A DNA stretch of 45,094 nucleotides from Paramecium tetraurelia (Eukaryota): positions 248,001 to 293,094 of the forward strand of contig CT868002.1 in assembly GCA_000165425.1 (NCBI GenBank). The letters run 5' to 3'. The translations under genes were made by a program, and so were the position numbers. Every line of letters begins with the position of its first letter. The stretch's first letter is position 1. Below, piece after piece: positions 38,950 to 45,033 of the stretch. The notes beneath the pieces were generated by a model. That model was not told the origin of the DNA and did not search any database. It saw only the letters and a list, made by a program, of their open reading frames with translations.

Positions 38950-40030
38950 GGTATAGGTAACCCTTGTATTGACTATGTAAATTTTATTTGATTAATATTT
39001 TTTTAGAGTGGATAACTCTTCTTAATTGTAGATATTTTAGGTTTGAATTATAAATTTTAAGATCAATATATTTTCTGTTACAAAGGCTAAGTCTAAATTT
39101 TTGATTCAAAAATATTTAATATAACCTCCTTCCCTTACGCTGGAATTGCAGGTATAATTACGTTCTTCAATCAATACGGAATATATTTACTCACAAGAGA
39201 TATGAATACTCCATTCCTATAAATTGGCCCAACTTTCTAATATTATAATAAAAAAGATGCTTATGAAGCCTTATATAAAGCAGGTTAGACTATAAAGGAT
39301 AGAGGACTTCCTCTTAAGTTTGGTTTGCCTTTAATAATTTTAGTAATGGGTCAGACATACACATGATATTCACAAAGCATTTAAATCCTAAGACTATTAT
39401 GCCAATAAATTAGATTATGAATCAATCTTCCATTAGAAATACTTACCTTATCTCAGTATTCTCGTTCATGATATTTATTGGGTATAAAAAAAAACTTTTC
39501 CCGATATATTACTGATTTATAAATTAAAGTAGGAATATCCCTAATTTTAGGAATTAGTTGAATCTGGAAATAGTAGGTTGGAAGATGTTACGTGTGATTT
39601 AAAGGGTTCCATCAAATTTTTAAAGAAGTTTACTAACCCTGATCACCTTGTGTACTATTACAATCCGTTGTCTCGATAGATTAATGACTAAATAGATGTT
39701 TAGTTTGAAAATGACATCATTTATATGACTATTGCTTTTTTACCTTCCTAAATGCCATATGAAGCAAGTATGGATTTTGGAAAAGCATTAAGAGATATTT
39801 TACCGCACTTAGTCTATTCAGATCCGACAAAACGATTGGAAGAAAGCTGTTACATGAATTTTTGTAAAATGCAACCGTTACATTACATGGAAAACTCACC
39901 TAAAAATTTTAATACATTAATGAATTAAGGAGAATTAATGAAACAAAAAATGACCAATAACAATTTAGATCGATTAAATCTCATTATTCGGACAAAATAA
40001 TTGCAACTTAAGAACATATCTCAACAGAAA
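38950..40030 (+). pseudogene. AASS: Alpha-aminoadipic semialdehyde synthase (lysine-ketoglutarate reductase domain) pseudogene
   Basis: YAGIAGIITFFNQYGIYLL..TPFLQIGPTFQY..GLP, SIFHQKYLPYLSILVHDIYW, DVTCDLKGSIKFL, LPSQMPYEASMDFGKAL, GKLTQKFQYINELR match LKR. There are internal deletions, a TGA near 39364, frameshifts, and no recognisable SDH domain downstream. Confidence 0.85.
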
Positions 40031-40392
40031 ATACTTCTCTATCATAGTCACAACCATATCTTTTTCTTATTTAATTTTAGATCACCAAACTCCAATTCAT
40101 AAGAAACGAAGGATGATGGAGCTTAACTAGAAGATTCACCAATAAATTTGAATATGCCTTCTAACGAAGGAATAACTAAATGCTCAATGATCAACTAGCT
40201 TTCGATTCACGAATTTAAATTTAATGATTATTATCAATTTAGCTATTATTCTATTTTTGATTTTTATTTTTACAATCCCTTAAATTATTATCAAGATACA
40301 TTTTTTAAAATAATTATTAGGTTTAAAGATAGAAACGTAATCCATTTTATTGCGATAAAAGAATTCCAAAAACTCTTTAAATTGTCACTAAA

Positions 40393-40404
40393 CCCCCCCC
40401 CCCC
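40393..40404. repeat. C12 homopolymer
   Basis: aaCCCCCCCCCCCCaaaag in otherwise very AT-rich non-coding/degenerate DNA. Confidence 0.9.
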
Positions 40405-40610
40405 AAAAGATTTGTGAAAAACAAAATGGATATTTAATTCCTTCATAATGGCGATTCAAATAGACAATATATTATTTCAATCATTAAAAATCGTCGAAAA
40501 ATTTGATCTTTTTATTGTTATTTAACCAAATAAAGAAAGGCAAGGGATAAAAATATAAGAAGAAGATAATTAATTTTTTTCTACAAAATTATTGAAAAAA
40601 ACATAAATTA

Positions 40611-42526
40611 TCATTTATTTGATAAATGCTTTTCACATTATTATTTTTAATCTTGAGCTTCTAGATGATTTGGGTTTTCTTCCAGAAGTTATGTGTAACA
40701 TTAAAGTGCCTTTTAGTAGTTTTTGGTGAAAAATAAACAATTTCCTAAAATAATATGTTATCATTACCTTTTGTTAATAATGATTTTGGATGATGTTAAT
40801 TTAATTTCAAAGCTTATTCTAAAACTTAAATGGCTTATAGTTCCATATCATTCCTATATAGACATTCACCTAATTAATAGAGAAATATTTACCCTTCATC
40901 CACAAAAGATCTATATTATTTTAATTGTTTCCTAACACTTTATTTATTTCAACTAAAGCTTTTGAATACTCTCTTTATGCCATTAACAGTTCAACTATAA
41001 TTTACACATTTTTTACTCTTTTTCAAAATCAAATCTAGATTGTTTCCATAGAAAATAAGAGCTTGATTTATAACTTTTAGGCTTTCTTCCACTTTTCCCA
41101 AATTAAATAAGCATTCTGCTATTAATTATTAATTTTAATCATACATTTTATAATTAATGTTTGCAAATCTTATGAACTTATTCTTTCAATCATTTCGATT
41201 GCTTCCTTTTTCTTTCCTAATAGGCTCAAGCATTTAGCTATTTATGAACTTAGATAATACCTCCAATCCTTAATAAATTTATATGATTTTTATCAATTAA
41301 CAATCCTTCATTTATCCATATCATAGCTTCTACTTACAACCCTAATAAACTTAAGCACTAGGCTAAAATTTATTGTTAGAAAAACCTTTTCTGCTTAGTG
41401 TGTTAACATGTTTGGGATTGACATTCAAAATGACATCAGCCAATTTTATAGCTTCTTAATGCTTACCTAATAGACTTAAACACTCAGCTAATAAAATTAA
41501 AGATATAGTCTTACCCTTTCTCCACAAAAAATCTGTATTGTTAGGATATACCATTAAAATTTCGTCTAATATTTCGAGAGCTTCAATTTGTTAGCCTAAT
41601 AAGCTTAGACATTCAGCTTTTATTTATACTTAGAGATACCTTTTCTGAACCAGGAATCAATACATTCAGGATATATAGATACTGCTTTTTCGATAATTAT
41701 CAGTGCTTCTTTATGCTTTCCTTATTAATTTAAACATTCTGCTATTTCTCATTAATATATCATACACTTTCTACATAATGAATCCAAATCGCTATCATCT
41801 AGAGATAGGGCTTTGTCAATCCATTTGATAGCCTCACTTTAATTACCCAATAAGCTTAGGCAAGTAGCTAATCAATAAAATTGACAATTACATTTACACC
41901 AAAGAGAATCAATATTCTTCTCATTATATTTAAGAGATTTCTCTATAACCTCTATTGCTTACTAAAATTTATCAATTTCGTATAATTTATAACCTTATAT
42001 CATAAATATGTTAAAAACCTTATTCATAGTAATAATCAGATAATTATTAATTGTCGTCGGCTTTTTGGATGCAATTTATATTATTTGCTATTTAAAAATC
42101 GACTATATTCTTAATGAGCGTTTAGAAATTTTCAAGTAAATTGCTGAATTATTCCATAATATCTGGTAATTTTACTAAATCGCACAAGTATTTATTTAGT
42201 TGAACTCCATTATATTTTTCAATTTTAATTTTAGGTAAAAAATATTTTAATTCCAATCCACCTCTTAATTGTATAAAATTTGATTAAAGCACTTTGAACT
42301 ATTCATCTAGTTATTCAATAATATCTATTTCGCAATTTTTTTATTTTTTTTCTATAAATTCGAATATTTCCTTTATTTTTTCCCAACCTTTATGGGTAGC
42401 TATATGTCTTTGCTCTCTTTCGCAGGTTTCACACATAAGTCTAGTGGGTTCAGCGCAATTATAAAAATGACAGAATCTTTCAATATTATTTTCATGATTT
42501 TAAATTGGGCATTTTATTTGATCCAT
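40611..42526 (-). CDS. TPR-array protein with N-terminal Cys/His Zn-binding-like module; one TPR unit per exon
   Basis: MDQIKCPIQNH..FCHFYNCAEPTRLMCETC, helical linker, then 11 TPR units (e.g. AECLSLLGKHQEAIKLADVILNVNPKHVNTLSRK). Eleven phase-1 introns: 41994-42018, 41868-41891, 41742-41765, 41617-41639, 41488-41514, 41363-41385, 41238-41260, 41119-41144, 40995-41016, 40870-40892, 40745-40767. TGA 40611-40613. Confidence 0.93.
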
Positions 42527-42859
42527 ATATATTAAGAAAATTAATTTATTATTAATTTATCCTTTTTATGATTATGCCTCCGGTCATCCTTTCGTCATCC
42601 AATGCATTAAATATAAAATGTTTCAGTTTATATCTAAATATATATGGCTCTCAATTTATTGTCATAAATTAATGAATTTGCAATATAAAATTATCAAGAC
42701 CTTTATTTATTATCAAACTTTTCCTATAGCCAAAACCAAATTTAATATTTGATTTGAATGCTAATTCAAATTTAATTAGGATCGTCTCACAATATGATGA
42801 AACAATTGAAATTAAATGATGAATTCTCATAATTATAATATCTCATAAAATCAATCAAT

Positions 42860-45033
42860 CAAAGTATTTCAGCTTCAAAAACAATTGAAGCAAATAATTG
42901 GTGAAGTATGATGGCTAAGATAAATAAAAAAATGGATGTACTGAGATTAAACCAAGAAAATTTCAACTATATAATCATTTGAAATTAAAAGAAAATGGTA
43001 AAATCTATTTCCAATATGAAGAACCCTAAAAATATCCTGATTATGTATAGATGATAGTGAATAATATTTTATAACAGGATAAAATATGGGAAATATTTCT
43101 GTTTGATGTCAAAATAAAAATGTATTTTTTGTAGTAGACTAAATTAATAAATTTTTCAAGTAGGTTAAACTACGAAATAAAGTAGAATTGTATTTATAGA
43201 TTAATTTATAAAAGGGGTTTTTGGGTGTGTAATTACTTTAATTGAAACATAATTATTGTAATAGAATTAGGAATAGATAGAAAACTAAATAATATTAAAT
43301 GTCTTCATTAATTGATATTGTTTCAAAAGATGAGAGGATATTTAATCTAAGGAGAAATAATTTAGAAGAAACTTAGTCTCTAATTAAAAATACCTTAATT
43401 GCAAAATGTCAAAGAAATTGACTAAAATAAAATAAAAGCCTTTCTTAGAGAGGTTGATCTTGATTTGGAATATTATGGCAATCTTCCTCTGTTACATTAA
43501 GCATCACTAGAATACCACAGAGTAATGGGGACAGAATTAGCATTTAATATAGAAAATGCCTAAAAGTGGATTTAATCAACAGAATTTATTGAACTTACTT
43601 ATGCCTTAAGATGGGTATATGAGATGTCTTCATACAAAGATAGATAAGAAATCTAGATAGAATTTGATCCAAAAGATTAAATTCTTAAGAAGATAATACT
43701 CCTAAATATAGGTTTGGAATAGAAAAAAGAGATTTCTTAAATTAATTTAATTGAATTGGTTTGTGATAATAGTGAAATATTGTATGGCTTGTCTTTATAT
43801 ATTTAAAACAGGATTGAAACTCAGGATATTTCAACTTATCTCCCTCTTCTCTAAAATATGATGTAAGAAGGTGATAAATCAGCAATTAATTAATTAATCA
43901 TCATTGAACTAATTGACAAAGTACTTAAAAAATATTCAGGATAGTAAGACGAATAAATAAAGAAATTGAAATTAACCAACCAAATAATAAGATAAATAAA
44001 ATGGGAAGAGGATTATAAATAATACACTTTGTAAGAATTAGAAAACCCAAACTTTTAACTTAGAATGACAAAATAGGTATATCTATATACAAAGGAATAA
44101 TATGAGGTCAAAATTAGCATATTTAAGAGTTAATGGGAAGATTTGTTTACTGAAATTATAACGTCAACTATCATTCAGCCTTTAGATATATTGTGCTCTT
44201 CTCTTGGTGAAGAAGAGGAAATAAATAAAGAAATGAATAACCCTACTTTTAGAAAAAAATATTATAAATTAAAAAGCAGTATTAACTAACCCAATCCCCT
44301 TTAGAGTCAGATAAGAGTAAATCTTCCACCTCCGCTACCTCTTCCTAAAGTAAAGTCAACTAATATTTCTAACTCCATTTATGTTAAGTTTAATTATCCT
44401 ATTCTTGAAAATTAATTAGATGGAACAATCTGGAAGGTGAATTTGATAGGTTATGAGACTAAAATCGATAAATAAATTTTAAAATATTTTGAAAAGAATC
44501 AAATAAAGTAGACAAAAATAAACTTAGCTAAAATTGTTGTTTTAAAAGATGAAGTTGAATATGGAAATTCAGTCTTTAAGAATTAAACCGAAATAGAATT
44601 AAAAAGGAAGAAGTTTGAGAAAATTAATTTAGACGAAATTTTGGAATAAGTAAATCAACTTGAATTTATAGAGAAAAATTAAGATAAGAATATCAGAGCA
44701 TATATTTAGCTTCTTAATTCTTCTATTCAATTTATATCTAAAGATAATGTCAAATAAATAGAATAAAACATAAAAGAGACCAAATAAGCAGAGTAATGAA
44801 TTTAGAAAAAGAAAACTTGAAGAAGAAGACGAATTATAAAAACAGGAAAGGGAAAGATTAAAAGACCTATAAAAAGAAGCAAGAGAATAAGATATTTTAA
44901 AATACGAATCAGCTATCCGTTGAATACAGAATGATTAATTACCTATTCTTGAAGAAGATAATAATTCAGAATTAGCCACCCAGAAAGAAAGCTATAAGCC
45001 TAGATTAAACACATAGATGACATAGATGTGGTG
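42860..45033 (+). pseudogene. Large degenerate gene, possibly formin-like (short proline tract plus FH2-like start)
   Basis: Open code-6 frame 43246-44796 containing LPPPLPLP..VKFNYPILENQLDGTIW..IDKQILKYFEK, reminiscent of the FH1/FH2 junction. TGA at 44797; a charged coiled-coil continuation follows in another frame with a further TGA near 44921. 5' end unresolved. Confidence 0.42.

Follow-up and report, generated by a model that had tools for sequence, protein, structure and literature searches.

The 45,094-nucleotide stretch of Paramecium tetraurelia contig CT868002.1 analyzed here (positions 248,001 to 293,094 of assembly GCA_000165425.1; hereafter the window) carries a gene with a series of equal-length internal exons, each spanning one period of a tetratricopeptide repeat (TPR). 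The question raised by this locus is whether such a layout serves to diversify a protein or records an old duplication. It had been proposed that the gene belongs to a modular TPR repertoire diversified by exon-level recombination or splicing, possibly in recognition or defense. We consider it likely that it is an intact protein gene of the P. aurelia group, whose exon-per-repeat layout came from ancient tandem duplication and whose exon order has since been fixed. This gene gives no indication of a mechanism that generates diversity.

Gene structure and register of the repeats

The window is AT-rich (GC 0.23–0.35) and reads as ciliate nuclear DNA in which TAA and TAG are sense codons (Gln). 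Left unspliced, the minus strand of the locus offers only frame pieces of about 30–200 codons. Once 11 introns are removed, a single frame of 550 codons (translation table 6) ends at the TGA at 40611–40613 (Table 1). The original prediction gave the locus as 40611..42018, which is correct for the array but too short for the gene, as the frame runs on to 42526. Its list of ten internal exons, nine of 102 nt and one of 93 nt, was exact in coordinates and lengths. Its description of the introns as 22–27 nt long and placed in phase 1 at the same codon position of the repeat was confirmed in the sequence for 11/11, all of them GT..AG (phase counted from the ATG at 42526); nine lie inside the array and two flank it. 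The expected junction, with Lys before the intron and A/G/S-E-C-L after it, was seen in most repeats. Equal length in 9/10 exons combined with one phase in 11/11 introns is far beyond chance.

Introns 2, 3, and 5 have lengths divisible by three, and retention of intron 5 would add nine residues without a stop. Stop-free introns of such length are said to be disfavored in ciliates (PMC13685798).

Table 1. Exons, predicted introns, and germline insertions of the TPR gene, in window coordinates
Feature	Position	Strand	Description
Whole gene	40611..42526	−	ATG 42526 to TGA 40611–40613; 12 exons, 550 codons, table 6
Exon 1, 508 nt	42019..42526	−	Putative N-terminal module: eight conserved Cys/His (B-box-like spacing), then long helical hairpin
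Intron 1, 25 nt	41994..42018	−	GT..AG, phase 1
Exon 2, 102 nt	41892..41993	−	TPR unit 1
Intron 2, 24 nt	41868..41891	−	Phase 1; retention gives in-frame TGA
Exon 3, 102 nt	41766..41867	−	TPR unit 2
Intron 3, 24 nt	41742..41765	−	Phase 1; retention gives in-frame TGA
Exon 4, 102 nt	41640..41741	−	TPR unit 3
Intron 4, 23 nt	41617..41639	−	Phase 1
Exon 5, 102 nt	41515..41616	−	TPR unit 4
Intron 5, 27 nt	41488..41514	−	Phase 1; no in-frame stop if retained
Exon 6, 102 nt	41386..41487	−	TPR unit 5
Intron 6, 23 nt	41363..41385	−	Phase 1
Exon 7, 102 nt	41261..41362	−	TPR unit 6, ending ..RIG instead of ..K
Intron 7, 23 nt	41238..41260	−	Phase 1
Exon 8, 93 nt	41145..41237	−	Shortened TPR unit 7; best match is the seventh P0001 unit
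Intron 8, 26 nt	41119..41144	−	Phase 1
Exon 9, 102 nt	41017..41118	−	TPR unit 8
Intron 9, 22 nt	40995..41016	−	Phase 1
Exon 10, 102 nt	40893..40994	−	TPR unit 9, most divergent unit
Intron 10, 23 nt	40870..40892	−	Phase 1
Exon 11, 102 nt	40768..40869	−	TPR unit 10
Intron 11, 23 nt	40745..40767	−	Phase 1
Exon 12, 134 nt	40611..40744	−	TPR unit 11, short tail and stop codon; TPR_2 E 6.5e-06
IES-like insertion, 28 nt, TA-bounded	TA 41983..41984		Exon 2, Leu codon of TPR position 11
IES-like insertion, 28 nt, TA-bounded	TA 41606..41607		Exon 5, Leu codon of TPR position 11
IES-like insertion, 28 nt, TA-bounded	TA 41352..41353		Exon 7, Leu codon of TPR position 11
IES-like insertion, 28 nt, TA-bounded	TA 40859..40860		Exon 11, Leu codon of TPR position 11
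Germline-only insertion, 27 nt	40734..40735		Exon 12, Leu codon of TPR position 11; TA on one side only (TG..TA, gene strand)
Candidate sixth, longer IES	TA 42353..42354		Exon 1; X16 contigs break, short junction contigs on both sides

The repeats are TPR units. When the 11 exon peptides were combined into a profile, it matched consensus (designed) TPR proteins among PDB sequences at E 8e-46, 3e-26, and 4e-25, and the matches to such proteins, which span E 8e-46 to 1e-15, step by 34 residues, the same spacing that the units have in the spliced frame. Single exon peptides matched Pfam TPR models weakly and in one register, with exon residues 2–26 on profile positions 10–34. These 33-residue peptides score 12–26 bits against Pfam cut-offs of 23–28, and thus the curated threshold is not passed by each repeat; 3/11 had no Pfam TPR match at all, as is expected of single repeats. 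The units were compared with the TPR signature, which has hydrophobic residues at positions 4, 7, 11, and 24, a small one at 8, Ala at both 20 and 27, and Pro at 32. Position 8, encoded by the split codon, is A, S, or G, position 11 is an invariant Leu, Ala occupies position 20 in at least 90% of the units, and Pro or a polar residue stands at position 32 in some. In this register, the exon peptide begins with TPR position 9, which makes it a circularly permuted repeat. The intron falls within the codon of TPR position 8 and therefore lies in the middle of helix A and not at a repeat border. The prediction of one 34-residue repeat per exon is thus, as judged from the aligned units, right about the period but not about where a repeat begins and ends.

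Age of the array and germline insertions

The exons are old copies. Their pairwise DNA identity is 40–61% (mean 50%, compared with 30% expected from composition), and that of their peptides is 18–52% (mean 32%). Tandem Repeats Finder reported no array within the gene body, and a hidden Markov model (HMM) of the repeat, run in six frames over the whole 45-kb window, found units in this gene's exons only. No silent exons lie in the introns, which at 22–27 nt are too short to hold them. The low identity, together with the lack of an array and of units elsewhere in the window, indicates that no recent duplication or homogenization has occurred, and on this divergence the repeats of the gene are old. 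The proposal that exon-level recombination diversifies this gene is at odds with these figures and with the absence of spare exons.

A second periodicity appeared at the germline level. The contigs of four runs (X16, X17, X19, and X20) were aligned to 40400–42800 with the likeness set to 90, and one 5071-nt contig of one run, X16, matched 40400–42354 without mismatch while containing five extra segments of 27–28 nt. All five are inserted 9 nt from the 5′ end of an exon (exons 2, 5, 7, 11, and 12), at a TA in the Leu codon of TPR position 11. The internal eliminated sequences (IESs) of Paramecium are likewise bounded by TA and can be 28 nt long. Four of the five insertions have the properties of an IES, being present in germline-type DNA only, absent from the somatic sequence, short, and flanked by TA on both sides. 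For the 27-nt insertion of exon 12, no placement gives TA on both sides, and to our knowledge excision in Paramecium needs a TA at each end. The one-sided TA might reflect a strain difference or a contig error. The length of this insertion is divisible by three, and if retained it would be read through without a stop.

The shared position of the insertions is hardly a product of chance. The gene has 236 TA sites, 124 of them in the repeat exons, and 10/11 of these exons have the TA of position 11. If five sites are picked at random from the 124, the probability that all belong to the position-11 class is 1e-6, and 200,000 draws produced no coincidence, whatever the offset. Sellis et al. (2021) treated IESs at the same within-codon position as descendants of one insertion, regardless of their similarity (PMC8354472). 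By this convention, the five elements would derive from one insertion in the ancestral unit. Exon 1 probably contains a sixth, longer IES. At its TA, one short X16 contig spans the site and two others run into unmatched sequence, a pattern that would fit the coexistence of IES-containing and IES-free forms.

We suggest that the unit of expansion was about 125 nt of genomic DNA, consisting of a 102-nt exon and an intron of roughly 24 nt, and that it was tandemly duplicated long ago. In the germline, the unit would also have carried an IES of roughly 28 nt, 9 nt inside the exon. Duplication of such a unit copies the position and phase of the intron automatically. After the expansion, the copies would have diverged and their order would have become fixed. 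The 550-residue product would contain eleven TPR units forming a superhelical protein-binding scaffold, held by a zinc-finger/coiled-coil head, and on its sequence a scaffold of this kind is the most likely function of the protein.

Relatives and competing explanations

The exon-1 peptide was searched against 1.84 billion representative proteins (E ≤ 1e-3) and matched 17 of them, at E 4e-75 to 6.5e-4. The 10 matches that were looked up all come from P. sonneborni, P. primaurelia, P. pentaurelia, or P. octaurelia and are named TPR proteins or, in the case of P0010 and P0011, WD40 proteins. These alignments place the gene in a P. aurelia family whose proteins join a zinc-finger/coiled-coil head to a tail of TPR (or WD40) repeats. 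P0010 and P0011 (P. sonneborni, 475 aa) carry the same N-terminal module on WD40, so that one head is combined with two repeat scaffolds. A word-index search of the longer proteins with exon 1 found nothing, and since it missed even P0001, the best relative, its empty result is uninformative; two metagenome scans gave no relative. In the family members, 2–6 units were detected compared with 11 here, and the clean models have 5–6 units spaced by 34 residues. The members differ by alignment gaps of exactly 34 or 68 columns, which indicates that whole units were gained or lost over the history of the family. The modular repertoire of the original prediction thus exists as a multigene Paramecium TPR family, whereas ongoing diversification of this gene is not supported.

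P0001 (P. sonneborni, 829 aa) is 43% identical in the part encoded by exon 1 and allows the order of the units to be compared. Window units 1, 2, 3, 6, and 7 have their best P0001 match at the same rank (22/34, 22/34, 16/34, 20/33, and 14/29 identical residues, respectively), and the odd ..IG ending of unit 6 is common to both proteins. The alignment of exon 8 with the seventh P0001 unit stops at 29/31 residues, and the two units may differ in length. Between its third and fourth readable units, P0001 has 67 garbled residues. These correspond, in order, to units 4 and 5 in a wrong frame that starts with the first base of the exon (20/34 and 13 identities); the other two frames score far lower. 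In all, 7/7 P0001 units correspond in position to window units 1–7, and the junctions of the model are also 34 codons apart. A fixed, colinear exon order, which had been named beforehand as the observation that would speak against shuffling, is what was found in this one relative. The P0001 model itself repeats a stretch of roughly 405 residues head to tail, with two TPR units mis-framed per copy, and represents either a tandem gene pair fused by annotation or an assembly artifact; P0006, P0008, and P0017 likewise contain seemingly mis-framed stretches. With P0001 residues 410–829 as the query, the next match after P0001 was a P. bursaria protein with 36% identity over 21% of the query; no other close relative was found, and the remaining matches were generic TPR proteins.

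Several observations weigh against an ancient duplication of exon-intron units in an intact gene. The colinearity comes from one relative whose doubled, partly mis-framed model ends after unit 7, and it therefore covers units 1–7; at 43% identity in exon 1, P0001 may be an orthologue or an older paralogue. The five insertions are no more similar to each other than shuffled controls (observed mean 11.85; null 12.4, standard deviation 1.8), a result that is evidence neither for nor against common descent, and the descent of the IESs from one element is argued from their position. The zinc-finger head has no B-box match in Pfam (none at E ≤ 1) and no significant one in Foldseek (E 0.51). No spliced-junction read or contig was found in the four runs at likeness 90, a setting that may have excluded such contigs, as a fully spliced contig would hold about 264 gap letters in about 1900; the introns are placed by sequence logic. 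Finally, the exons end in ..AAAG or ..AAG followed by GT, a proto-splice-like context that recurs in each repeat and fits parallel intron gain.

The lack of spliced junctions in the runs aligned to 40400–42800, and the absence of the gene's own product from the protein collections searched, would be expected if the gene model were wrong and a pseudogene or chance frames with unspliced "introns" were being read. We regard this as extremely unlikely. A TGA-free frame of 550 codons arises only after the removal of 11 canonical tiny introns, the strong TPR profile signal lies in exactly the spliced frame, and the P. sonneborni relative shows conservation at the level of single units. In addition, RNA-library contigs of X19 and X20 (one each) fall on exon 1, within 42257–42518; at the same likeness, no X17 contig was placed on 40400–42800, and the X19 and X20 contigs reach no repeat exon. 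The share of sampled 31-mers contained in X17–X19 is 0.61–0.62, which is consistent with the 0.60–0.64 expected of fully spliced mRNA and was not counted as evidence. It could also be proposed that an originally intron-less TPR array gained its introns independently at a recurring proto-splice site, the context for which is supplied by the Lys of position 7 and the small residue of position 8. This would require 11 gains at the same nucleotide of the repeat and, independently, five IES insertions at one codon, whereas a single duplication history accounts for both sets of positions, and we find parallel gain very improbable.

The alternative closest to the original prediction is an active recognition or defense repertoire, in which symmetric exons are currently duplicated, deleted, shuffled, or skipped. 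Each internal exon is indeed symmetric (phase 1-1), has a length divisible by three, and could be removed or doubled in frame; the relatives differ by exact 34- or 68-column blocks; and elsewhere in P. tetraurelia, identical IES copies have been traced to recent expansion or recombination of TPR repeats (PMC3464196). In the systems where active shuffling has been described, its hallmarks are repeats at the nucleotide level, species-specific expansions, silent exons in long introns, and unalignable paralogues (young Tetrahymena LRR genes, PMC6564038; Ectocarpus, PMC3341825). The gene shares with them its equal-length, frame-symmetric exons. However, no exon pair exceeds 61% DNA identity and none of the exons forms a detectable nucleotide array, the positional correspondence with P0001 is kept, and silent exons occur neither in the tiny introns nor on the other strand or anywhere else in the window. 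Nothing was found that links the gene to recognition or defense; searches of the single exon peptides against Pfam gave no NB-ARC, ROCO, kinase, or other signaling domain. An active repertoire is therefore an unlikely account of this gene, and we favor its ancient expansion by unit duplication.

The N-terminal module, published systems, and significance

The head of the protein is encoded by exon 1. Of the 17 aligned sequences, at least 90% share each of eight residues (C6, H11, C19, C24, C32, C35, H41, and H44), and a structure model of the exon-1 peptide (predicted local distance difference test score, pLDDT, 78) has a small strand-rich head followed by a long antiparallel helical hairpin. 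The peptide has no Pfam family, zf-B_box (PF00643) included. Foldseek with this model returned nothing at E ≤ 0.001; its top row was the B-box/coiled-coil of TRIM5alpha (4tn3), which is not significant (TM score 0.28), and isolated B-box domains stood at ranks 34, 36, and 45, all with E > 2. VIA-align gave generic helical hairpins (Z ≤ 8.5) in rows that cover the helical part (residues 50–154) only. We suggest that the module is a putative zinc finger with B-box-like Cys/His spacing joined to a helical hairpin or coiled coil. This arrangement of eight Cys/His followed by a long antiparallel hairpin resembles TRIM proteins such as TRIM5alpha, but here a RING domain is missing and the C-terminal part consists of TPR units (of WD40 repeats in P0010 and P0011).

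Neither of the two neighboring long frames, 39257–40417 (+) with 386 codons and 43330–44799 (+) with 489 codons (table 6), is related to the TPR gene. The former converges on its 3′ end and ends in a C run (Pro codons) near 40396–40409, which is unusual for DNA of 25% GC.

The gene has counterparts in the literature on Paramecium. According to Vitali et al. (2019), no other genes of P. tetraurelia have as high an IES density as its TPR genes, which reach 10 IESs per kb and carry 1135 of the 44,928 IESs; the function of the family's proteins was given as unknown (PMC6771405). Arnaiz et al. (2012) ascribed IESs present in 3–6 identical copies to the expansion or recombination of TPR or WD40 repeats (PMC3464196), and Guerin et al. 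(2017) listed TPR repeats among somatic tandem repeats (PMC5405496). With five, and probably six, germline insertions in 1.9 kb, the gene resembles in its very high IES density the TPR-motif family exemplified by PTET.51.1.G1500001 (PMC6771405), from which it differs in that one of the five elements has no TA on one side. The original prediction left open whether such genes had been described. The "TPR coding exons" of the family and their periodic IESs are already in print, but in its available text PMC6771405 gives no exon length, intron phase, or exact IES codon, and it is this register that we add. No paper was found that gives the 102-nt/phase-1 rule for TPR genes of Paramecium, though the figures or supplements of PMC6771405 may show it.

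The analogues cited in the original prediction are real. The leucine-rich repeat (LRR) genes of Tetrahymena are likewise ciliate repeat genes with tandem exons of equal length and introns of one phase, and their arrays have been explained by clonal expansion of an exon-intron unit (PMC6564038). They differ in having 90-nt (90-bp) exons, phase 2, and introns of at least 56 nt, compared with TPR exons of 102 nt, phase 1, and introns of about 24 nt here. The Tetrahymena arrays are associated with retrotransposons and comprise tens of thousands of exons; no such association was seen here, and the gene resembles the old "group II" state of those arrays, which lacks nucleotide-level repeats. In the NB-ARC-TPR and ROCO-LRR genes of Ectocarpus (Zambounis et al. 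2012, PMC3341825), one TPR is also encoded per equal-length exon, a multiple of three. However, these TPR exons measure 126 nt (the 34-residue TPR plus a linker), and the inactivated exons in long introns, unalignable paralogues, and attached NB-ARC domain described for Ectocarpus have no counterpart here.

The import of this gene is modest. It is a clean example of a repeat protein growing by duplication of an exon-intron unit, with germline IESs travelling along, and it fits the published statements on TPR genes while adding the exact register, with the intron in codon 8 and the IES in codon 11. A genome-wide peak of 102-nt, phase-1 exons, if true, would make it harder to maintain that LRR genes of Tetrahymena are the only ones with uniform exon arrays. 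We tentatively raise the possibility, somewhat less probable than its opposite, that the whole Paramecium TPR family is built of 102-nt exons with phase-1 introns in codon 8 and minimal-size IESs in codon 11. In that case, the germline unit of expansion would be an exon-intron-IES module of about 154 bp, and the family would provide a second clonal exon array in ciliates, where the Tetrahymena authors thought theirs unique (PMC6564038). The exon-12 element would then be an IES that is precisely removed with TA at one boundary only, and duplication of the module would give IESs a route to multiply without transposing.

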